DNA of 32,000 nucleotides from Ureaplasma parvum serovar 3 str. ATCC 27815 (GCF_000019345.1 NC_010503.1:630001-662000); one strand, 5' to 3'; numbered from the stretch's first letter, positions 6,634 to 31,023 are shown. Numbers and translations are program-made. Notes: generated by a model not told the origin, from the sequence alone.

Positions 6634-6717
6634 TGGTGCGCTTGAAGAGACTTGAACTCTTACACCGCAAAGTACTAGATCCTAAGTCTAGCGCGTCTGC
6701 CATTCCGCCACAAGCGC
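6634..6717 (-). tRNA. trnL: tRNA-Leu (anticodon UAG), class II with long variable arm, CCA encoded
   Basis: rc reads GCGCTTG..CTAGA-CTTAGGA-TCTAG..CAAGCGC-A-CCA. Acceptor and anticodon stems pair. 84 nt. Confidence 0.9.
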
Positions 6718-6721
6718 TTAA

Positions 6722-6797
6722 TGGTGCTCTGTGAGGGTTTCGAACCCGCGACCCACTGATTAAGAGTCAGTTGCTCTACCTACTGAGCTAACAGAGC
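6722..6797 (-). tRNA. trnK: tRNA-Lys (anticodon CUU), CCA encoded
   Basis: rc reads GCTCTGT TA GCTC..GAGC A ACTGA-CTCTTAA-TCAGT .. TTCGAAA .. ACAGAGC A CCA. One C.U mismatch in the T stem. Confidence 0.85.
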
Positions 6798-6868
6798 ATA
6801 AACCCCTACCTACCCAAAGTAGATAGGGGTTTAGCTAAATCCCACTAATAAGCAGGTTGAGTATATAA

Positions 6869-6944
<76 letters not shown>

Positions 6945-6945
6945 A

Positions 6946-7021
6946 TGGTGGAGTGCAAGGGACTCGAACCCCTGACCCTTTGCTTGTAAGGCAAATGCTC
7001 TCCCAACTGAGCTAGCACTCC
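6946..7021 (-). tRNA. trnV: tRNA-Val (anticodon UAC), CCA encoded
   Basis: rc reads GGAGTGC TA GCTC..GAGC A TTTGC-CTTACAA-GCAAA .. AGGGG TTCGAGT CCCTT GCACTCC A CCA. Confidence 0.9.
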
Positions 7022-7067
7022 ACAAATAATACTTAAATTTTTAAGTATTACTTCGTGTTTTTATAAA

Positions 7068-7144
7068 TGGTGACCTGTACGGGATTCAAACCCGTGAATG
7101 CACGCGTGAAAGGCGTGTGTGTTCAGTCACTTCACCAACAGGCC
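7068..7144 (-). tRNA. trnE: tRNA-Glu (anticodon UUC), CCA encoded
   Basis: rc reads GGCCTGT .. CACGC-CTTTCAC-GCGTG .. GGGTTTGAATCCC .. ACAGGTC A CCA. Confidence 0.85.
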
Positions 7145-7145
7145 A

Positions 7146-7220
7146 TGGCGGCTACAGTAGGGATCGAACCTACGACCAACCGGTTAACAGCCGGTTGCTC
7201 TACCGCTGAGCTATGTAGCC
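7146..7220 (-). tRNA. trnN: tRNA-Asn (anticodon GUU), CCA encoded
   Basis: rc reads GGCTACA TA GCTC AGCGGTA GAGC A ACCGG-CTGTTAA-CCGGT .. GTAGG TTCGATC CCTAC TGTAGCC G CCA. Confidence 0.9.
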
Positions 7221-9535: not shown

Positions 9536-11146
9536 ATGAAAAAATGAAAACTAGTTCGAACTTCAGGGTTGATTCTTATTACAGGAATTAGTATACCTGT
9601 AATAACAACAAGTTGTTCTCTAATTGATTTGTTCAAAAGTAATAATGAGAAACAAAATGAATTTACTCATGGTAAACTAAAATCTAATCTTGATTACAAT
9701 GTAAGTACTGCTTATTTAAATAAAAGATCTATTGCTTTAAAATTCACAATACCTTTAGATAAAAATCAAGCTATTAATATTTTTGGAACAGGATGAATTT
9801 TTGATTTTCAAGAAGATCCATTTACAAAAAACATTAGAACTTATTACTTGGCAACTAACATTCATGTTATTAATTTGATTTCAGCAGCAAAACAAAATGC
9901 TTCTTTAACGCTTGGTCAATACGATTTAGAATCCCAATCCCAAGATACAAGAGCTTTTTTTAATGAAAATTTATCATTTAAATCCGCTAAAAAAACTTAT
10001 AATCCACAATACTATGTAAATTATAATCCAGTAGGCACTTTTTCAATTTTGCCTGTTGGATTAAAAAACCAACTAAAAAATTATGGTATTAAAAACCCAG
10101 CCGCTTTAGCTTCTTTAAATAATTTAACAACTGCTGTTGATTTAGCTATTATCAAAATCACACCAGATATCTTACAAAAAAATAATATTGATGCTTTGAG
10201 AAATTTTGATAAAGAAGTAGGTATTGGTTTTGGTAATACTATTAGCAATCATCAAAGGTTTTATGCCGCAGGATATCCACATGATGAAAAATATAGTCGT
10301 TGAAACCAGTATTCAAACCAACCAGATGAATTATTTAATTCATTTTCAACATCAAATTATCGGAAGGATAATCCAATAAATTTTAGTTATAATGAAGAAT
10401 ATATGACAGTTAGTAACCGTAACACAATAGGTAAAAATAATCCTACTAAATATGAAGCTTATGACTATGCAACAAAAAATTTTGATTTACATTCAGGAGC
10501 ATCAGGAAGTCCAATAATTGATGACAATAATAACTATGTTGGAATTTATTGAGGTGGATTTAAAATTCAAGAGGGTCTAAAAACAACTTTTTATGGTAAT
10601 TTTAGCCCTTTATTCGTTCATAAAGATAATGGATTATCTCAAGATTTATTAGCATATTATTTAGCATATACTGCAAATGAAACTACATATTTAGACACTA
10701 ATTTTAATACTAATTTACGTTATTCAGCATTATCAAAAGAAAATAAAGAAATATATGATAAATTTGTTCAAAGTCTTGAAAAACAATTTCTAAGTGATGA
10801 TAATCAGTATGGTGATAAAAATATTTTATCACTAAAAACAGTTGATGGATATTCTAAAAATAAACAAGATTTAATTAATACCTTATACAATTTTATTTTT
10901 AAGGATATTAATTCACCATCATTTAATGAGAAATATACACATGAAAATTTAAAATTAAAAGATATAATTGATGTAAAAGTTGAATGAAATCGTAACAAAA
11001 ATATTGATTTAAGAATCACATTTATAACAAAAAGACCGTTAAATTTTAATGTTAATCATATTGTTAATTTCAATACAAGCTTTACTTTTTTTAAAGAAAT
11101 CTCTAAACCAAATGAAAATAATAATTGAATTGACCAATTATTATAA
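9536..11146 (+). CDS. Lipoprotein with trypsin-fold serine protease domain (mycoplasma DUF31-like putative peptidase), 536 aa
   Basis: MKKWKLVRTSGLILITGISIPVITTS-C is a signal peptide plus lipobox. Catalytic-triad-like motifs appear in order: GTGWIFD...YYLATNIHV (His), AVDLAIIKI (Asp), HSGASGSPII (Ser). Translated continuously in frame 2 through 7 TGA-Trp to TAA 11144-11146. Confidence 0.75.
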
Positions 11147-11217
11147 TTTTGTTTATTTCATTGTTTCTATTTTATAAAATATAAATATGAAAATTTAGTT
11201 AAAAGGAATAATTATTT

Positions 11218-11436
11218 ATGGCATCTGAAGATAAAGTAGTTTACTATTTATCACCTAATGAAGATAAGGGTTGAAAGATCTTTAAAAAAGGTGGCGAACG
11301 TGCAACAAAATTATTTAGCACTAAAAAAGAAGCTTTAGAATATATCAAAACATTAGGACGTAATCAAAATGCTGTTGTTTATATTCAAACAAAAGATGGT
11401 AAATTCCAAGACGTTCGAAATTATCGTGATAAATAA
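11218..11436 (+). CDS. Small DUF2188-like protein, 72 aa
   Basis: AAAGGAA upstream of the ATG. MASEDKVVYYLSPNEDKGWKIFKKGGERATKLFSTKKEALEYIKTLGRNQNAVVYIQTKDGKFQDVRNY fits the DUF2188 pattern (GW.v...g..ra...f.tK.eA...a......l.ih..dG.i). One TGA-Trp. Confidence 0.6.
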
Positions 11437-11468
11437 ACAAGATAAATTAAAGATAAATTAATTGATTA

Positions 11469-11520
11469 AAAACATTAAGAAGTACACCCTAATAAATGTA
11501 TTTCTTAATGTTTTTATTTT
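11469..11520 (+). terminator. Rho-independent terminator between convergent genes
   Basis: ACATTAAGAAGTAC-(loop)-GTATTTCTTAATGT followed by TTTTTATTTT. It lies between the stop at 11436 (+) and the stop at 11550 (-). Confidence 0.6.
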
Positions 11521-11549: not shown

Positions 11550-13343
11550 CTATTTTCATAAAATATGGCGGATTCATTTAAATGAATATTGATTAGTAAT
11601 TTGATTATCTTTATAATCGTTTTTATTTAAATACTTGTAGTAGACAATCGTAAACATTAATAAAGAAATAATTAAAATTACAGCACTAGATATTGATAAT
11701 GGCATTGATCACGCCAATAATCCAGCAAACTTAACACTACTTTGGTAATCAACACCAAAACCAACAACAAAAGCAATTACTAAAACTTGCAATAATAATG
11801 TTGGAAAAGGTGATTGTTGCTTTTTAGCAATTAGATCACGATAACGCATTAATGTTAATGACAATGAGTAAAAAATTGCAAATATTGTTAAATGAATATA
11901 TGTATTATCACCAATTAATAATTTTTTAACTACCTCTGCTGAAATTTGCACAAAAGATGTGGTAATTGGATTATCAATACCATATAAATATTTAAAGTTA
12001 GGCCCTGCTGCTCAAATTGGAGTTATTAATTGTTTAATAACAACTTTTCATACCTCAGGATTATGGTTTGTTAAGTGTGCTAAAATCAATCTTGGATCAA
12101 TATGGGCTTGTGCCCCTAAAAAGTATACTAATCGAGGATTATTTAAAATTCCTTGACGAATTGACATATAAAAATGATCTGGTATTTCTGCATCTAAATT
12201 AATATATGCTTCATTTTGTTCTTTAGCATAAACGACTGATAGAGGTTTGATTGAAAAACCAAAAATAATTGCTGCAATCATTAAATAAACAAACAATAAA
12301 CCAAAAACACAAATAAATAATTGGCGCGAATGGTAACGACGATCACGAATAGTTTGTTTTTGAAAAATATAAAATAGGTAATCAGTAAAACCTAATCCAA
12401 TCCCTTGAATAAACAACATCGCATGATATCATAAAATTCGACCAGTTTGTAGATTTAAAGGAACAGAATTTGTCATTTTTTGATTAATTAAATGATATAA
12501 AGCTAATAGAACAAACATTTTTATAATTGAACTAAAAATCGAAATTAAAGTTTGATTTCAAATTTGTTTAATGCTAATTTTTAATAAATTTAATGATAAA
12601 CCTAATTTAGATATCCTTCAATCTTTACTAAATTTAATAATACTAATGGCAATTGTTGAAATAATATAACCAATTGACAATCCTAAACCATACCCACTAT
12701 AAGCTAAAATACTATATTTACCTAATAAAAAACTTGTCACTAAACAAATTGTTCATGTGGCAAAATCTAAAATAATAGTTAATAGAATTTTACGACGATC
12801 ATTTGTTCAAATAGAAATTAAAAAATAATTATGAACTGGTGCTAAAACGATAATCCCCAAACTTGATCATATGTATTGTTCACCAAATAGTTGAGCAAAC
12901 AAGGTATTTTCATGAATGTTTGCATAAAGATTATAAGTATAAGATGTCGCCAAATAAACACCCAACATTATTAAACCGAATGAAAATGCATAAAAACTTG
13001 CTAAGTTAGTTGTTGAATGTGATGGAACAAACTTGTGTTTACTTCCATCATATAGTTTTTTAGCTCATAAGGCTAAAACTACACCTATATTTCCACCTAA
13101 TTGTATAAAACTAAATTGGAAAACAACAATATAGCTAACACTTGTCGCAGCAAATGCACCACTAAAATTATGTAACGCTATTATTATTGTAATTAATAAT
13201 AAAGCTAACGATGAGAACAAACTTGAAGCTATAAACGATGAGCTATCTTTTATGACTTCTCATAATGTTGTAAAAATGCCATAATGTTTTTTAAAAACAT
13301 GACGTTTAATTACAAGGGGCGTTTTTTCAATCGATGATGTCAT
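11550..13343 (-). CDS. Polytopic membrane protein, 597 aa, paralog A (possibly a MATE/MOP-superfamily-like transporter; function uncertain)
   Basis: ATG 13343 with AAAAGGAGA upstream. Fully hand-translated with no TAA/TAG and 14 TGA-Trp. About 12 or more hydrophobic segments plus a ~100-aa hydrophilic insert. Clearly paralogous to the next gene (shared RYHSRQLF, FGFSxK, SFYxFxFGL, LDFxTWT). Confidence 0.55.
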
Positions 13344-13431: not shown

Positions 13432-15234
13432 TTAATTTTGACGAACCTTAATTTGTTGTTCTAATTGTTTTTTAGGCATAATTGATAATTTTTCATCATT
13501 GTACTTATGATTCTTTAAATATTTACGATAAATACGTAAAATTTTATAAGTGCTATATCCTAAAATAAAAATACTTGATATAAATAAAGGAAATGATCAA
13601 GCCATTAAACCAATGAAATGTGGATCTGATTGGTGTGTTAACCCAAATCCAGAAGTAAACGCAACCATAACTAATTGAATAACAATCATTACATATGGAG
13701 GACGTTGTCGTCGGGCAATTAATCCTACATAACGACTTAAAATAGAAGAAAAAGAAAAGAATGTACAAAAGAATGATAATAAAATATAAGCATTATTTTT
13801 AATTAAATAACTATAAATATTTGAAGCTGAAATATCAACAAATCGATGTGTAAAAGGATTTTTCATTTGATATATCGTTTCAAATTTATCACCTAGTTTT
13901 CATATTGGATCAATCACTTTTTGCGCCATTGGTAATCAAATATTTTTATCATTTGATGATAAAGCATTAACAACTTCTTGGCGACCAATATTCACATGAC
14001 TAGTAATAATATCTAATAATTTTTCATCATTAATTAAAATTTTTCTTAAAGATTGATAGAAATGTTCGGGAACTTGCTTTTCTAAAAATATATAAGATGG
14101 ACTTTGTTCACTTGTATACAATTGGACTAATTGTTTTACAGAAAAACCAAAAATAACTGAAGTAATTAAAGCAAATAAAATACCTAATATAAAAACTCAA
14201 AAAAATAATTGTCTTGAATGATAACGACAGTCTCTGACTTCTTGTTTTTGATATAAATAAAATAAAAAATCTGACAATCCTAAATTTAACATTTGTATGA
14301 AAATCATTGATTGGTACATTAGAATTCTCGTTGATTGAAAATCTAATAATGATGAACCAACTACACGTGAGTTAATTACCACAAATGTAATTAACAAAAT
14401 AAACATTTTACCAACTGATTTTAATGATGATAAAATCGTTTGAATTCATAATAATTTAATACTTAAAACAAATAATCTTTTTGAAATATATAATGGACGT
14501 AAAACAATTTGGGCTTTTTCAATTGTAGTCATACCAATAATAATAGTTCAAAAAACAAAACCAATTGACATACCAAGGCCATAGCCCCAATAATTTAAAA
14601 CACTATAACTACCTAATAAAAAAGCTGCAATTAATGCGGTTGTTCATGTACAAAAATCTAAAACAATTGCTAATAAAACATTAATGGACTTGGTTGATCT
14701 TATTAACATCAATAAATAGTTTCGCAAAGGTGCTAAACCAACAACTGCTAATCCTGAAACAATATATGCACTACCTACACTTTGATTAATCACTGTATTT
14801 TGGTGATCATTTGCAAAATGATTATAAATGTAAGAGGTTGTAAAATAAATTAATAAAACTACTAAACCAAAGATAAATGAATAAAAACTAGCAGCATTTA
14901 CTGTATCATTTGTAGGTTCAAACTTATACTTACCATCTTTAAATGATCTTTTTGACCAAATCGCAAAAACAATGCCAAAGGTTGTTCCTAATTGTAAAAA
15001 ACTTAACTGAAAGATAGTTAAATAACTAATACTAGTTGCTGCATAAGCACCAATATCTTTATGATGAGCAACAATTACAACAATTAAAATTAATGATAGT
15101 CCTGTAAAAACACTTGCAGCGATAAATGGCGAGCTTTCTTTTAAAAGTTCTAAAAGTGTTCTAAAAACGGTAAGATTTTTTTTAAAATAAGAATCGGATT
15201 TTTTAATAACTTTCATTTGTTTCTGTTCTTCCAA
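13432..15234 (-). CDS. Polytopic membrane protein, ~600 aa, paralog B
   Basis: Pieces 13597-13866, 13936-14121, 14197-14406 and 14644-15267 are in one frame. Likely start is TTG 15234, 6 nt after GGGGGAGA; the alternative is ATG 15216. Stop is TAA 13432-13434. Confidence 0.55.
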
Positions 15235-15296
15235 ATTAAATCTCCCCCTTTTATATAAAAACACCATATAGATTATATCATAAAATATACTAAAAA

Positions 15297-21746: not shown

Positions 21747-23258
21747 TTATTTGCTTTTTGGTTCTCAATATAGTTGTTTTATGTAATCTTTTAGTGCTTT
21801 AGCTTGACCTTCTTTGCCTAATCCATAATAGCCTTTAGCGATTCCTGCTTCAAAACCACCATAAGATGAATTACCACCTATTAATACATAAGATTCTGAT
21901 CAAGTTTCATCAGATTTCACCATTTGACCGTTTTGATTTTTTTCGTATTTAACACCTTTATTATTTATATCAAAATTACCAAATAATTTACCATATTCTT
22001 TTAATAATGCTACACGTTCACTATTAAGTTTACCTTTTGAAGCATTATCATTAAAGTCATCAAAATTATCACCAATACGCATTACAGTTTTTAAAACTAC
22101 AGCATTACCACTACCGAATTCACTTAAATCATAACCTTGTGTACGCTTATTCATAGCATTCATACGGTCTTCTTTAGTAGATTTTACACGTTTTCCTTGT
22201 GCATCTTTTTTAATATTTGCTCATGGTTTATCGCTACTAAAATCTACTCCTTGCATTCAAAAAATTCATTTAGGTAATAAACTACGTTCTAAGCCTTCAC
22301 TAACCAAGTTTTCAATAGTTGGATCGACTTGGTTTTCTTGTTCACGGTTTGAGTTGAACATTACGACTCCACCATGTTCTCAAACATATTTAATGAATTC
22401 AAAAGCTCCAGCTAATCGTTTTGAAACCTTGTCATTCACAAATGCATCTCAATCCTTTGGATTATAAGCTTTATTATTTAATAATTGATAGTTTTGATTA
22501 GCGTAATTATTTAAAATTGTTTCATCAATATCCATAAATACTACAGGAATTGCCTTATTACTTTCAGGATTAGAAACTGTTACCTTTGTAATATTACCAT
22601 TTGAATCTTTTTCTACTTTTACTTTACTTGTATCAAAATCACTTTGTTTAATCATTGCATCAAATTGGTGTTTTGCACTATTATACTCTGTTAATAGCAT
22701 CCCATCTTTTTCAGCACTTAATGTGTTTCAAATATTAGCTAATCAACGTTGGTTGTAAATAATTGATTCTGCACTATTATATGATTTTATTTCATTTTTT
22801 TCATTACTATGACTTATTTGAACCTTTGGTCCATCATTTAATTCAATATTGCTTATATTTAGTGTTGTTACATAAACAGCACCTTTTTTTAAATTAGCAT
22901 CATCTGGTTTAATAATTACACGATCATCTTTTTTTGGTTCACGTGCTAATTTTACATAAACTCTACCATCCCTTAAAATCCCTGTAGATGATGTAAATTC
23001 AGCATTATTATCTTTATCAATAACACTAGTTTTAAAATTAAGATTTTGTAATGATTTTTTTTGGTTATCATCTAATTTAGTTCAATTTGTAATCTCATAA
23101 ATTGCATAAACACCATTTTGAGTTCTAACAAAAGATGAACTTACAGTTGATTCGATATTAGAGTTAGTACAAGCAGTAGCTGTAGCAATAATACTTGTAC
23201 TAACTATTATTGAACCTAATGATATAGCTCAAAATTTCTTATTTTTCAATAATTTCAT
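21747..23258 (-). CDS. Lipoprotein, HAD-superfamily class B / e(P4)-type acid phosphatase (5'-nucleotidase) with a ~200-aa N-terminal extension, 503 aa
   Basis: MKLLKNKKFWAISLGSIIVSTSIIATATA-C (lipobox). VVFMDIDETILNN (DxDxT nucleophile motif) and MRIGDNFDDF (GDxxxDF). Pieces 21900-22163 and 22449-22700 are in frame with ATG 23258. Stop is TAA 21747-21749. Confidence 0.8.
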
Positions 23259-23468: not shown

Positions 23469-26384
23469 CTATTCTACATCTCAATCTTCATTAAATAAAG
23501 CAATTGATAATACCAACGCAATAGCTTGAGTTCGTTTTTTAATTTGTTCTGGTTGAAGTTCTTCTTTATCACTTAATTTTAAACTCATAAGTGCTTCTTT
23601 AAATACATCTTCATTAACATCAATTTTATTAGATTTTAACTTTTCATTTATTTTTGTGAATTCATTGTAAAGTTTTGTTATTTGTTCCTCATTTAATCCT
23701 TTGTATAATCAAAGATTTTGAATGATAGGTGCATTTTTATAACGTTGTTTTTTATCTTTAAATTCTTTATTATTAAGAGCTGAGTTGTATTCTTTAGTAA
23801 GTGGTATTAAATTACCAATATTATTTTTAACAATATTAAATCTTTCATCTTTTAATGATTGTGAATACATGTGTTCAATTGTTAAATCTGCTTTTTCATT
23901 ATCAGCATTACTTGGTGGATAAAAAAATACTTTTGTATCCTTATTTTTATTTATTTGCGTATCATCAAGAAAAAAAGTTAAATAAGTTTCAAATCTAATT
24001 AAATAAGCCAAATGAATATCACTAACCTTTTCATCAAGCATTTTGTTATAAAAATTTTTAATATTTTTTATTTCCATTTGATTATTGCTATTAAAAACAT
24101 CTAAAAATTTTTTTGATAAATTAATATTTTTAATGGAATTTATATTGTTTTTGTTAATATCATTATCAATTAACTTAATTAATTTAATAACACTATTTAA
24201 AATACTTTGACCACGAGTATTTAATAAAACATTTCTCAATGAAAAATTAGCAATCACGCTAACATATTCTTCAATATTAATTCTTAATTTGCTTTTATCA
24301 AAATTACCATTGTTATCAAAATCATACAATACATCCTCAGTAAATATTTTCTCTAATAAATAAACTAATAAAGGAATATAATTCTTTTTCTTTTTGTTCG
24401 TTAAGATTAGTAAATAATCACTAATTAAATAAAAATTACAATTATTGTTTGTGAATTTATCTTTGATTGTTAAGTCATTGTAAATATCTATATATTTACT
24501 AAAATATTTCAAACACGCTTTTCAATTATTTTTTAAAGTAAATTTTTTATTAATAATTTCAATAATAAAAAATCAACTTTTATTATAATATTCATCATCT
24601 TTATCGTTTTTTTCAAATCTTTTTAAATCCTCATCTTTACAAAGATTTAAAGCACTTAATGAATCAACAAATTCGTTAAAACGTTTTACTTCAATAATAT
24701 TTTCATCTTTTTTTAATAAAAATTTTTTCGTTATTAAATCATTATATTTCTGTTGGAATTCTTCTTTATTTTTAAAAATTGATTCTTTAAAATTTTCATA
24801 TCAACAAAACTTATTTTTTAACAATTCAATAGCGTTAAGTTTTTTAGCATTAGTATTTAATGATTCAAAAGTTTTAAATTCATCAACATTTTTTAAAATA
24901 ACTAAATTGAGGATTAAATTATTAAATAAGGCGTTAGCAAAATTCGCTCATTCTTTAAATTCTTTTGGTTTTTCTTCAAATCATTCAACAATATCTTTTA
25001 GATTCATAAAAATATGATTGTTTTTATTATCTAATTCATCATTAGATAATATTTGTTTTAAAGCTTCATAGTCAGGATTGCCACCAATACGACTAAAGCG
25101 ATCAATTATAAACTCTCTGTTAAAAAAGATATCTTTTAAATGACTTAGTTGCTTTATTTGTTCGTTTGTAAATTTTGTTATTTCTTCTCTGTTGTTATAC
25201 AAGAAAATAATAAATGCTTTTGTAATTAAAAATAAGGTTGTTAATCGTTGTTGACCATCAATAATTTGAATATTATCAATAGATTCTTCTTTAACTAAGA
25301 CACTAATGATACTACCTAAAAAATGGTTTTCATTATTTTGTTTGTTACTAATATCATTAATATCTTCTAGCAATTTTTCAATATTATCAATTGTTCAAAC
25401 ATAATTACGTTGAAAAACTGGAATACTCATTTTAATTGTTTCATTCTTGTTTAAAAATTTAATCAATCATACTAAATTAAAAATATAAGCATCACCATTA
25501 TCTGAAGCCAACTTCTTTGTACCATCTAATTTAGTCACTTCAATAGAATTGTCATTTGAAATTAATGGTAATTTTCAATTAGTAACTAATTCACACGAAT
25601 CACTATATTCTTCAAAATTAAATTTTTTATTATCTTTTTCTTGTTGAGTTTTCGCTGTTCTTAAAAAATCTGGTTTATTTTTAGTTTTATTTATATTAGT
25701 TTGATTGTTTGGATTTGCTTTATTTTCATCATTAGTTTTTGCTCAATAGTTTTCAAATTTGGTAATTAATTCATTAGAAATTATTTGATCTTTAAAATAA
25801 TTTTCAACAAATTCTTTATATTGTTTAAAATGCTTAAAATTGCTATCATTTTGCTTAGGTTCATAGTAGTATTCAAATAATTCTTTTTTAGTTAAATAAT
25901 CATTGTGTTTTTTATAATGTAGTAATGATAAGAAAATAGTTAAAACAAAATCTTTATTTTTTTGATCTATTGTTTCATTTTGAAAAAAATCATTTAAATC
26001 TAAATTTCTTAAAAATTTATTAACAAAAACATTTGTGATGTGTTTATTGATGCTTTTTTCGGTGTTATCTGATACATTAAAAGTAAATATATAATCTTTA
26101 AGAGTGTCATTTTTGTATGTATTAATTGTTTTATTTTTATCACTATCTACAATAATTTGTAAATAATAAAGAACACGTATTAATTCATAAGATGAACGTT
26201 TAAAACTAAATTCAACTTTTTTTTGATTTTTATCATTAATTAAAATTTTTCATTCTTGATCATTAGTATCAAGGTGTAATTTCTCATTCGAAAAAATCTT
26301 TTTAACATTATTTTCATTGCAGATCAAATATTTAATAAATGTATTAATACTTGTACTTATTTTTCAAAACTTTAATTTAGCCAT
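23469..26384 (-). CDS. DUF262 + DUF1524 (GmrSD/SspE-type) nuclease-family protein with an unassigned ~320-aa N-terminal region, 971 aa
   Basis: Hand-translated end to end from ATG 26384 to TAG 23469-23471; the only interruptions are TGA codons. DUF262 motifs IPVFQRNYVW and IIDGQQRLTTLFLI. DUF1524/His-Me finger LTIEHMYSQS...NIGNLIPLTKEYNSALNNKEFKDKK. The start lies 3 nt after the methyltransferase stop. Confidence 0.85.
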
Positions 26385-26387
26385 AAA

Positions 26388-27635
26388 TTATTTATTAAAT
26401 CTTTCTTGAATTAATTTCATTAAATAAACCATTACATCAACAACAATTGAATTTCCAGCTTGTTGATACATTTTAGCTTTTGATATTCCCTTAGCTTGAA
26501 TCGCTTCAAAATCTTTTTCATTAAAGCCCATTAATAGATAGGCTTCACGATTTGTTAATAAACGAAAGTTTGCTTTTTTAGGTAAATTATTGTGATCTTT
26601 TTCACGATAATCATCACCTAAAATCGTATTTTTTAAATTGATATAACCACCATTAGGAAAACGATCTTGACGTGTTGTAATTGTTGAAGTACAATAACAA
26701 TTAGGATTTAATAAATCATATTTTGGAATGACATATTTTATTCTTGAAAATGTGCGATTTGGTTGAGCTAAATATGCTTCTTGATAATATTTTTCAATTT
26801 TATAATTAGTTTTTAAAACATCCTTTAATTGTTTTTGTTTTCCATCAAAAATAGGTGCTTCTAAATCTAAAATATTTCCATTACTATCAATTAATCCATC
26901 ATAGTTTAGAATCGAAATTGCATATACTCGTTTACGACGTTGTGCTGACCCATAATCAAGAGCGTTTAATTGAAAAGTACATGTACTATAACCTAATTGT
27001 TTTAAAGATTTGGTTCACATATCATAATCTAGCTTATGTTGTTTAGATAACATGTTATTAACGTTTTCTAATAAAAGAAATTGTGGTAATTGATTTAATT
27101 TTTGCAAATCGAATAAAATGCGTTCAATTTCTCATAGTAATCCAGAACGTGTACCGGATCCTTTTTTCATTCCAAAAGCTTTTTTACTAAAGCTTCCAGC
27201 TGTTGATAAGTCTTGACAAGGGAATGAATAAGTAAGTAAATCTATCCCTTTGTTCCCAACACTTTTTATTAACTGCTCACCAGTCACACTTAAAATACTT
27301 CCTAAATTATTAGAATTAAGATATGCATCATATAATTCACGTTTAATATTTTCGCTAAAAGAACTAATTTTTTTACGAATTGGGTCTTTACCATTTGATG
27401 AGTGATTAAATTTTTCTAAATAATTATCAATTCTATTAATATCAATATTTAAATTAATTTTTTTATGTGGATAATGAATTGTGTTATAAGAAATATTTGC
27501 ATAAATATCTCATTCGCTTGTAGCAACAATTTTGTAGTCAAAGCCAAATTGTTTTTTTACAATTTCTAAAGCACGATGTTGTGCTCCAATTCCAGAAAAA
27601 GTTTCAAATACTCTTAAAACCTTAGTTTTATCTAT
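26388..27635 (-). CDS. DNA (cytosine-5)-methyltransferase, ~415 aa, intact body but without a canonical start codon in the present DNA orientation
   Basis: Hand-translated with no TAA/TAG and 3 TGA-Trp. Motif I FETFSGIGAQ, IV SFPCQDLS, GSGTRSGLLWEIER, VI LLENV, VIII QRRKRVY, IX RLLTNREAYLLMGF, X GNSIVV. Upstream in frame: TAA (27641-27639), AAC, ATA, then GAT AAA ACT AAG GTT. The nearest ATG (27645) is out of frame and stops after 5 codons. Confidence 0.85.
27616..27633. repeat. Left arm of the 18-bp perfect inverted repeat (aaaaccttagttttatct), inside codons 2-8 of the methyltransferase ORF
   Basis: Exact reverse complement of 27757-27774, checked base by base. The match stops at both flanks. 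Confidence 0.95.
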
Positions 27636-27739
27636 GTTTTAACATTGAAATTATTTAAAAATGCTAAAATTAAATAATAATTGATGTTTTTGTATTAATT
27701 TCGTACGAATAAATTATTTAGAACAAAATGTGGACATTT

Positions 27740-27790
27740 ATGAGCAAAAATAAAGCAGATAAAACTAAGGTTTTCTCTATTTTTTTGTAA
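27740..27790 (+). other. Displaced 5' cassette of the methyltransferase gene (ATG + MSKNKADKTKV), currently fused to a 5-codon nonsense tail (FSIFL*)
   Basis: atg agc aaa aat aaa gca gat aaa act aag gtt ttc tct att ttt ttg taa. Codons 7-11 (DKTKV) are the IR itself, read in the same frame as in the methyltransferase body. Confidence 0.7.
27757..27774. repeat. Right arm of the 18-bp perfect inverted repeat (agataaaactaaggtttt)
   Basis: Exact reverse complement of 27616-27633. It lies inside a 16-codon plus-strand ORF beginning ATG AGC AAA AAT AAA GCA. Confidence 0.95.
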
Positions 27791-27849: not shown

Positions 27850-28605
27850 ATGAAAAAATTTATAAATTATTTAAAAAATGTAAAAGGATATAGTGATGGT
27901 ACAATTGCTATTTATCAAAAATATGTTAAAGTACTAATTGATAATAATTTAGATTATTTAAAAGCTATTAAAAAATATGAACATAACGCTAATGTTACTA
28001 AGCGCGTTGTTTTAAGTGCTTTTAAAGCATATTTAAAATTTATTAATCATAAAGATGCTATATTGATTGTTATGCCTAAAAAAGAAATTAAAGTAAAAGA
28101 ATTTTTGACTTGAGATAATTTTTTAAAAATTATTAATAATATTAATCAAGCTACCTTTTTAGGTTTTCAGAAATATTTAATTTTAAGAATTTTATTTGAA
28201 ACAGGCATTCGATCTTGTGAATTATTAAAACTAGAAATTAAAGATATTTATGAAAATAAGTTAAAAATTCATGGCAAAGGCAAAAAAGAACGCTTTGTTT
28301 ATTTATCAAACGATTTACAAAATAATATTAAAAAATATATTGGTCAAATTAAAACAAAATATTTATTTAATTTTAGTTATAAAAATTTGTATCAAAAAGT
28401 TACTAGAATTAAAACTAATATTAGGCTAACGCCTCATATTTTACGTCGTAGTTTTGCTAACCATTGCATTAATAATGGTATTAATATTTATGATTTATCA
28501 TTAGTTATGGGTCATAACAATATTAATTCAACAAGTTTATATTTAAATAAGGAAAGTAAATTAGTAGAATTAGATCATCTTTTTGATAATAAAAAAGTTA
28601 ATTAA
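27850..28605 (+). CDS. Tyrosine site-specific recombinase (XerC/D / phage-integrase family), 251 aa
   Basis: Pieces 27850-28113 and 28387-28605 are in frame (one TGA-Trp). Catalytic residues in order: ETGIRSCEL (Arg), HGKGKKER (Lys), TPHILRRSFA (HxxR), MGHNNINSTSLYL (His...Tyr). Confidence 0.85.
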
Positions 28606-30947: not shown

Positions 30948-31023
30948 TGGCAAGGGTAACAGGACTCGAACCCGCAACACGCAGATTTGGAGTCTGCTGT
31001 TCTACCAATTGAACTATACCCTT
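30948..31023 (-). tRNA. trnW: tRNA-Trp (anticodon CCA, reads UGG), CCA end encoded
   Basis: rc reads AAGGGTA TA GTTC AATTGGTA GAAC A GCAGA-CTCCAAA-TCTGC GTGTT GCGGG TTCGAGT CCTGT TACCCTT G CCA. 76 nt. Confidence 0.9.

Follow-up and report, generated by a model that had tools for sequence, protein, structure and literature searches.

Why should a nuclease of the GmrSD family be encoded immediately behind a cytosine methyltransferase? The question is raised by a locus in Ureaplasma parvum serovar 3 str. ATCC 27815, a bacterium of the human urogenital tract. The locus lies in a 32,000-nucleotide stretch of the genome (GCF_000019345.1 NC_010503.1:630001-662000; this whole stretch is referred to as the window, and positions are counted from its first letter). 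Here a UU528-like C5 methyltransferase is followed on the same strand by a UU527-like protein of 971 amino acids (aa) with DUF262 and DUF1524 domains, and the gene for the tyrosine recombinase CodV diverges from the pair. We show that the pair, methyltransferase first and translationally abutted, has been conserved as a module across at least 11 lineages, and that in the window the methyltransferase stands in an OFF orientation, without an in-frame start. Neither the pair nor the U. parvum switch was found described in the literature open to search (subscription papers and REBASE lay outside its scope), and a literature search found no published invertible or phase-variable methyltransferase in Ureaplasma.

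The window has a GC content of 25.6% and resolves into long open reading frames (ORFs) under genetic code table 4, in which TGA is read as tryptophan. The ORF for the 971-aa protein is open only under that code: codon 7 after the ATG at 26384 is an in-frame TGA. Calling of ORFs under table 11 gives no such frame and thus misses the gene, so table 4 was used. The initial annotation had placed the start of a 971-aa DUF262 + DUF1524 protein 3 nt past the methyltransferase stop, and this was borne out by the table 4 ORFs, by Pfam and by the junction itself, which reads TAA(26390-26388)-TTT-ATG(26384). The locus has the arrangement expected of a restriction-modification (R-M) system: a nuclease gene adjoins that of a methyltransferase whose catalytic motifs are complete, with a 3-nt gap and, in a terminator scan, no terminator-like site between the two genes. 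Coordinates of all features are collected in Table 1.

Conservation of this adjacency among homologues had been named beforehand as a check on the pairing, and it was found. In all 11 lineages with an N-extended GmrSD-type protein (carrying the motif WKIGTS..YID), a C5 methyltransferase lies immediately upstream on the same strand, whereas the same arrangement occurs at none of the 145 evaluable ordinary GmrSD loci (Fisher's exact p = 4e-17). The background comprised 158 other GmrSD-family loci (78 taken from genomes, 80 from viral contigs), of which 145 had enough upstream sequence to be evaluated; a C5 methyltransferase anywhere in the flanks was seen at only three, using a hidden Markov model (HMM) built from the partner clade that is less sensitive to divergent C5 enzymes and blind to N6 and N4 enzymes. 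The 11 lineages are unequally independent, L004/L006/L007/L104 forming one group and L002/L105 another. Two of the members (P0247 and P0248) were found with the N-domain profile alone, and their gene context was checked afterwards, blind. The partner methyltransferases form one clade, scoring 292-790 bits against the partner HMM, versus 43-54 bits for stray C5 methyltransferases near GmrSD genes. At the junctions of the ten relatives the two genes either overlap by 1-20 nt or are separated by a gap of 2-12 nt, and GGAG-like sites precede the nuclease gene in the relatives, a feature that U. parvum does not have. Because the adjacency holds at 11 of 11 subfamily loci and at 0 of 145 ordinary ones, we regard the two genes as a functional pair.

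What distinguishes the coupled proteins is an N-terminal extension of 215-320 aa, present in every one of them; ordinary family members begin at the DUF262 core. The extension opens with MAKLKFWKISTSINTFIKYL in the window and with WKIGTS/N..YID elsewhere, and the presence of this motif correlates perfectly with that of an upstream methyltransferase. Proteins from M. lipofaciens (G1) and M. neurolyticum (P0219) were considered as members and rejected; they have long N-termini without the motif and do not lie directly behind a methyltransferase. No Pfam family matched the extension. A profile of the N-domain, searched against 1.84 billion representative proteins, returned four matches, all at the N-terminus of GmrSD-type proteins of 775-869 aa, and the domain was never found alone; four is a lower bound, because organisms using code 4 are probably under-called in the protein library. 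Members of the N-extended subfamily were found neither on the 80 viral contigs nor in a phage collection. Within the L004/L006/L007 group the N-domains are 36-49% identical, versus 65-67% for the nuclease core, and the target-recognition domains (TRDs) of the methyltransferases are 56-63% identical, versus 75-81% for their core, so that the N-domain and the TRD are the fastest-evolving parts of their respective proteins in this group.

Behind the extension, the 971-aa protein consists of a DUF262/GmrSD_N nucleoside triphosphatase (NTPase), a linker and a DUF1524/GmrSD_C His-Me nuclease, and by these domains it is a member of the GmrSD family. The NTPase motif DGQQR occupies aa 376-380 (nt 25245-25259), IPVFQRNYVW also lies in GmrSD_N (aa 310-526), and the His-Me residues E837-H838 (nt 23871-23876), G857-N858 and N867 are present. 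The initial annotation had singled out the DGQQR and His-Me finger residues, and both proved to be invariant columns across the subfamily alignment. Where a His-Me motif of the EHxxP type would be expected, the window protein reads EHMYS and lacks the proline. A DUF262 protein of known structure (PDB 9jfl) matches aa 833-909 at E 1e-8. Otherwise the protein is nearly a sequence orphan, its next matches being 26-34% identical. Its best PADLOC matches (HEC-06, Orf5 and SspE) are limited to the DUF262 core: HEC-06 profiles span only aa 317-551, and SspE profiles only aa ~309-420, about 100 residues, at E 5e-15. Because the known profiles span only this core, the protein is not an orthologue of SspE, BrxU or HEC-06. 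The nuclease gene is interrupted in some strains: in L097 (CP021990.1; 5404-8320), an OFF strain, a 1-nt indel splits it into 569 + 412 aa, and in P0142 it is shortened to 764 aa beside an ON methyltransferase.

The partner has all the motifs of a C5 methyltransferase: I, IV (PCQ), VI (ENV), VIII (QRRKR) and X (GNS). Its nearest solved relative is M.MpeI (PDB 4dkj/8c56; E 1e-41), with the same motif order. M.MpeI is a CpG methyltransferase of M. penetrans, in which CpG is read by F302, E305 and the loop G322-A323-N324-S325-R326 (PMC10899764). At the position of that loop (recognition loop 2), T-x-T/S-T-K/R-Q-D-R is common to all of the partner methyltransferases. Enzymes of the M.SssI/M.MpeI family occur only in Mollicutes, phase-vary by slippage at poly(G) or poly(GA) tracts and have been treated as orphans (PMC9465063). 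One allele of the U. parvum enzyme, P0164, has a G to R change in motif I (FSRIG).

In the window, this methyltransferase lacks a proper beginning. Its frame opens with ATA at 27635, directly after an in-frame TAA (27641-27639), and no ATG, GTG or TTG was found in frame at its 5' end; the 415-codon frame is otherwise intact. The initial annotation had taken 27635 as the start. The native ATG is found at 27740-27742 on the opposite strand, in inverted orientation, so what the window shows is the OFF state rather than an intact gene. The ATG and codons 2-6 lie on a 123-bp segment, which may also contain the promoter, between perfect inverted copies of an 18-bp repeat, AAAACCTTAGTTTTATCT, the proximal of which falls within the coding sequence. 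The repeat was found by strain comparison, a default repeat search having given only AT-rich noise, and the window holds no further copy when up to three mismatches are allowed. The 123-bp segment in the window, L001 and L093-L099 is the exact reverse complement of that in L089-L092. Inverting the window segment in silico yields a 420-aa protein identical to a natural ON form, P0165, and further U. parvum assemblies carry this form (MSKNKADKTKV..., 420 aa) with the 971-aa gene intact directly behind it. The initial annotation had also invoked an upstream inversion, and for the methyltransferase these findings confirm it. An alternative that we tried, that a 1-nt insertion in an A4 tract (giving MLNIDKTKV) would account for the missing start, was ruled out by the ON N-terminus MSKNKADKTKV on the inverted segment. 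The switch also explains why public annotations of the methyltransferase disagree about its length, which is given as 299 (GTG start), 315, 415 (ATA start) or 420 aa.

Both orientations occur. Among the retrieved loci eight are OFF (window, L001, L093-L097, L099) and four are ON (L089-L092), with L098 left out of the count because it is the same contig as L001. Across the collection, the OFF-type gene call was indexed in 61 blocks, and 19 contigs were read with the ON form. The ON locus L089 and the OFF locus L093 (complete genome CP021988.1) align without mismatches or gaps for 2,614 bp upstream and 4,200 bp downstream of the segment, as do L089 and the OFF locus L099 for 2,614 bp upstream and 3,054 bp downstream. 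Because ON and OFF flanks are identical, we reject a rearrangement fixed by lineage. The OFF orientation also occurs on the haplotype of the window, 4-5 single-nucleotide polymorphisms away, and thus on two haplotypes. The inversion therefore looks recent and recurrent, with a pattern like that of a phase-variable switch, as judged by comparison between assemblies rather than within one clone.

Which enzyme might turn the segment? Each site consists of an 8-bp arm (AGAGAAAA or TCTTAAAA), a 6-bp asymmetric centre (CCTTAG) and a second 8-bp arm (TTTTATCT), a layout that appears typical of a tyrosine-recombinase core site, and the adjacent CodV is the likely candidate for the invertase. CodV is strain-variable in U. 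parvum and toxic in Escherichia coli; it bound a putative dif site, and its function was left open as "yet another unknown mechanism" (PMC3599477; 2013). The 18-bp repeat bears no likeness to the published difUP probe of CodV or to IRmba, the site of XerC. Because no recombinase was found adjoining the pair in the other lineages, the switch is specific to U. parvum. Scans for promoters and terminators were at chance level, so the promoter was not placed. With the segment OFF, a 16-aa ORF starts at the displaced ATG and runs in the direction of codV; a promoter located on the segment would, in this state, drive codV transcription, with possible feedback on switching.

Table 1. Features of the U. 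parvum locus, and spacing of the methyltransferase and nuclease genes by lineage
Feature or lineage	Position in window	Strand	Basis	Junction
GmrSD-type protein, 971 aa, UU527-like, AAF30940	23469-26384	-	Table 4 ORF; Pfam; exact match to AAF30940.1/WP_010891809.1 of U. parvum	
GmrSD_C (DUF1524) His-Me nuclease domain, aa 773-911	23652-24068	-	Pfam PF07510, E 1.1e-12, 48.4 bits (cut-off 23)	
GmrSD_N (DUF262), aa 310-526	24807-25457	-	Pfam PF03235, E 1.9e-30, 106.9 bits (cut-off 33.2)	
N-terminal extension, aa 1-316, with extreme N-terminal motif MAKLKFWKISTSINTFIKYL; subfamily-defining	25437-26384	-	Alignments	
Spacer TTT, methyltransferase stop to GmrSD-type ATG, 3 nt	26385-26387	-	Sequence	
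C5 cytosine methyltransferase body, UU528-like, AAF30941, M.MpeI/M.SssI family	26388-27635	-	Pfam DNA_methylase, E 2.3e-47	
Proximal 18-bp inverted repeat AAAACCTTAGTTTTATCT, within methyltransferase coding sequence (encodes ..DKTKV)	27616-27633	.	Perfect copy	
Invertible segment, 123 bp, with methyltransferase ATG and codons 2-6 (MSKNKA), possibly promoter	27634-27756	.	Strain comparison	
Displaced native start ATG (27740-27742) heading 16-aa ORF MSKNKADKTKVFSIFL toward codV in OFF	27740-27790	+	In-silico inversion	
Distal 18-bp inverted repeat	27757-27774	.	Perfect inverted copy of AAAACCTTAGTTTTATCT	
Tyrosine recombinase CodV (UU529; AAF30942), divergent from pair	27850-28605	+	Pfam Phage_integrase, E 3.7e-21; sequence identity	
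U. parvum (window)				3-nt gap
L002/L003				1-nt overlap
L004/L005				20-nt overlap
L006				19-nt overlap
L007				10-nt overlap
L009, Mycoplasmataceae metagenome-assembled genome				1-nt overlap
L077, Mycoplasmopsis lipofaciens (G2)				11-nt overlap
L100-L102, M. synoviae				14-nt overlap
L104 (P0247)				12-nt gap
L105 (P0248)				8-nt overlap
L186, M. gallopavonis (RefSeq 'dcm' + DUF262)				2-nt gap

How might the two genes work together? We lean modestly towards the view that the pair is a phase-variable, R-M-like system that, like LlaJI, derives from a Type IV chassis, and in which the methyltransferase would mark self and the nuclease would attack unmarked DNA. CodV would flip the 123-bp segment; when it is ON, the methyltransferase would mark the cell's own DNA, and the GmrSD-type enzyme would attack DNA without the mark by means of its private N-terminal domain, which would either read the unmodified site or dock the methyltransferase. 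A Type IV chassis would thereby have been turned into a modification-protected restriction enzyme, as LlaJI exemplifies for McrBC. Because ON strains keep both the methyltransferase and the 971-aa gene intact, the nuclease presumably does not attack its partner's mark. The initial annotation had argued that a Type IV enzyme made together with a methyltransferase whose mark it recognised would be self-destructive; that argument fits the ON strains. The SspE-like label it gave to one of the resulting arrangements was a loose one, there being no Ssp genes and only about 100 residues of SspE likeness.

Frequent flipping would endanger a cell that carried a free-standing, stable nuclease blocked by methylation, and the nuclease therefore most likely depends on the methyltransferase for its expression and possibly for its targeting. 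The link in expression would lie in a single operon, the 3-nt coupling and the weakness of the nuclease gene's own Shine-Dalgarno sequence; the link in targeting, if there is one, would be a Type III-like division of labour. A tentative version, possible rather than probable, is that the N-domain binds the partner methyltransferase, which supplies target recognition, giving a modification-protected GmrSD-type nuclease whose dependence would allow safe flipping by CodV; the pair would then represent an R-M class not recognised before.

Several points weigh against the R-M-like reading. All of the stand-alone GmrSD enzymes that have been characterised depend on modification of the DNA (PMC12707154). 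OFF genomes retain an intact nuclease gene, which under this reading is safe only if the gene is co-switched or its product is methyltransferase-dependent, both of which are putative. The orientations were both seen only between assemblies, not within a single clone. ATA is a permitted start in table 4, so the OFF state may be leaky. Structure predictions for the N-domain reached a predicted local distance difference test (pLDDT) score of 38, which is poor, and 58, which is moderate (residues 40-165, the core, scoring 70-86 in the latter), and Foldseek searches with these models returned no match below E = 0.4. Across all pairs, co-divergence of N-domain and TRD was not significant (Spearman rho 0.26, p = 0.19). 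As to what the methyltransferase reads, an aromatic residue aligns with F302 of M.MpeI; recognition loop 2 is TTRQDR, against ASGANSR in M.MpeI, and because of this difference CpG specificity is not to be assumed. The observed/expected ratio for CpG is 0.82 over the 32 kb, which is uninformative, as are palindrome statistics there.

Other explanations of the pair have to account for the same facts. An ordinary Type IV enzyme with a specificity that excludes its partner's 5-methylcytosine (m5C) would be complementary to the methyltransferase rather than interdependent with it, as BrxU is in BREX, or GmrSD-like proteins in Hma and Type I systems. It would agree with the solitary action of the characterised GmrSD, BrxU and HEC-06 enzymes on modified phage DNA, with the frequent embedding of GmrSD-like genes, in the same orientation, in methyltransferase-containing systems, and with the second GmrSD paralogue at several Mollicutes loci, and OFF genomes with an intact nuclease would be harmless. 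We nevertheless consider it rather unlikely, since it leaves without explanation both the abutted or overlapping methyltransferase of a single clade (11/11 lineages versus 0/145) and the private N-terminal domain on exactly those proteins that are coupled. Methylation might instead be needed for activity rather than protection: in a licensing of the SspE kind, host m5C marks would stimulate the NTPase, and the nuclease would then nick invading DNA. The nuclease would again be harmless in OFF cells, and SspE is itself a DUF262-DUF1524 protein dependent on the host's modification module, with profiles that match the DUF262 core (E 5e-15) and a structure, PDB 6jiv, that matches at E 9e-5. That likeness is confined to the ~100 residues of shared core, however, the locus has no ssp or dnd genes, and no part of SspE is related to the N-domain, which makes such licensing quite improbable.

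A further possibility takes the emphasis away from the nuclease, making it an addiction or stabilising partner, or a passenger, of a switch that serves mainly a phasevarion run by an M.SssI/M.MpeI-family methyltransferase. The orphan status of the Mollicutes CpG-family enzymes, for which phase variation through poly(G)/poly(GA) tracts is established (PMC9465063), would suit it, as would the natural frameshifted nucleases (L097, 569 + 412 aa; P0142, 764 aa beside an ON methyltransferase). Yet most strains have an intact nuclease with all its catalytic motifs, in a genome of 25% GC where open frames decay fast, and the coupling across lineages shows selection on the pair; we hold this explanation to be very improbable. 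Finally, the inversion might be a polymorphism fixed long ago, or might have arisen as an artefact of assembly, with the methyltransferase here a decaying pseudogene. The restriction of the comparison to different assemblies and the G to R change in motif I of P0164 are compatible with that, but an exact reverse complement between perfect repeats in many independent assemblies, complete genomes among them, the occurrence of ON and OFF on 100% identical 6.8-kb flanks, the presence of OFF on two haplotypes and the otherwise intact 415-codon frame leave it with hardly any probability, and we consider it largely refuted.

The R-M-like reading can also be set against systems already known. GmrSD, BrxU and HEC-06 share with the subfamily the same two catalytic domains and motifs (DGQQR; EH...N...N), as the matches to Pfam and PADLOC profiles reflect. 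They act alone on modified DNA, without a cognate methyltransferase, whereas the subfamily has an N-domain of 215-320 aa and an obligate upstream C5 methyltransferase; the Type IV feature of being solitary, with no cognate methyltransferase, thus fails in 11 of 11 lineages. A 2015 phylogenomic study of GmrSD found Type I components enriched in the neighbourhood and additional domains fused at the C-terminus, and did not report a C5-methyltransferase-coupled, N-extended clade. In logic the proposed system comes closest to LlaJI, a relative of McrBC that is accompanied by two m5C methyltransferases and reads an unmodified site through an exchanged N-terminal domain (PMC12707154). Common to the two are a Type IV chassis whose N-terminal domain has been replaced or added, one or more C5 methyltransferases, and action on unmodified DNA, which for the U. 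parvum pair is putative. LlaJI has no sequence relationship to the U. parvum nuclease, and it is made of an AAA+ GTPase and an McrC nuclease from two R genes, whereas the U. parvum enzyme is a single ParB-like NTPase/His-Me polypeptide. In SspABCD-SspE, too, a DUF262-DUF1524 effector is tied functionally to a host DNA-modification module, but there the mark is a phosphorothioate made by four genes and here it would be m5C, made by one. M.MpeI and M.SssI, the closest solved relatives of the methyltransferase, have the same motif order and are likewise confined to Mollicutes, but they are regarded as orphans and switch by poly(G)/poly(GA) slippage, whereas the U. parvum enzyme has site-specific inversion and a nuclease partner. 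With regard to the switch, mba/UU172 of U. parvum (via XerC), the hsd and vsa loci of M. pulmonis and the Type I hsdS 'epigenetic invertons' also have short inverted repeats with a tyrosine recombinase next to them, and there too expression is governed by an inversion that can be reversed. The mba/XerC system uses a different site (IRmba rather than AAAACCTTAGTTTTATCT) and a different recombinase (XerC rather than the candidate CodV), and the hsdS and surface-antigen systems shuffle cassettes, whereas the inversion described here deprives a Type II-like C5 methyltransferase of its start codon.

The relatives' loci hold further genes beside the pair. In four relatives using code 11 it is followed by the same three genes (L004 3664-7022; L006 3666-7012; L007 3661-7019; L104 3593-6832), which match the PADLOC candidates PDC-M33A (~585 aa, GHKL-ATPase-like, EIIQNSLDA), M33B (~280 aa) and M33C (DUF6339). 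These five genes may be one system rather than two neighbours; the M33A/B/C genes are absent from the Mollicutes loci, and were not found in the window. Second GmrSD-like paralogues stand beside the pair in L009 (190-2052(-); 621 aa, canonical, divergent), L077 (5071-7899(+); 943 aa, N-extended, without the motif) and L002 (4916-7117(+); 734 aa, DUF262 + HNH-like). Because GmrSD enzymes form dimers, heteromers of the paired nuclease and such a paralogue are conceivable. Downstream of the pair in L002 (7186-7488) is the truncated start of a second C5 methyltransferase, MKLKVVELFSGIGAQ..., running into an (ER)n repeat, possibly a remnant of another copy of the module. The M. gallopavonis pair (L186, NZ_LR215033.1) lies on a 22-kb record, 'plasmid 3', with IS3-family transposases on both sides (123-1337 and 11133-11473), which hints at how the module moves.

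Housekeeping genes surround the pair in the window (pgm-like, cytidine deaminase, e(P4) lipoprotein and rpsL-rpsG-fusA-tuf). Neither a BREX nor an Hma gene set was found among them, and Ssp and dnd genes were not found among the genes of the window. Directly downstream of the nuclease is the 503-aa lipoprotein of the e(P4) 5'-nucleotidase/HAD-IIIB family (21747-23258(-)), which UniProt labels 'MBA N-terminal paralog', a family tied to other phase-variable loci of U. parvum. Farther away are tandem paralogous polytopic membrane proteins of 597 and 611 aa, 43% identical (11550-13343(-) and 13432-15267(-)), a cluster of six tRNA genes (Leu, Lys, Thr, Val, Glu, Asn; 6634-7220(-)) and a lone tRNA-Trp(CCA) at 30948-31023(-), of note since the genome also reads UGA as tryptophan.

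If the R-M-like reading is true, the GmrSD family, now filed as Type IV, would gain a methyltransferase-coupled branch, and LlaJI/McrBC would be joined by a second independent example of a Type IV chassis that became an R-M system. For U. parvum, the reading offers a concrete, testable role for CodV (UU529) and a third phase-variable locus besides mba and UU172, one that would affect genome-wide cytosine methylation in a human pathogen. It bears on differences between the methylomes of strains, on possible epigenetic phase variation and on the barriers to genetic manipulation of ureaplasmas.

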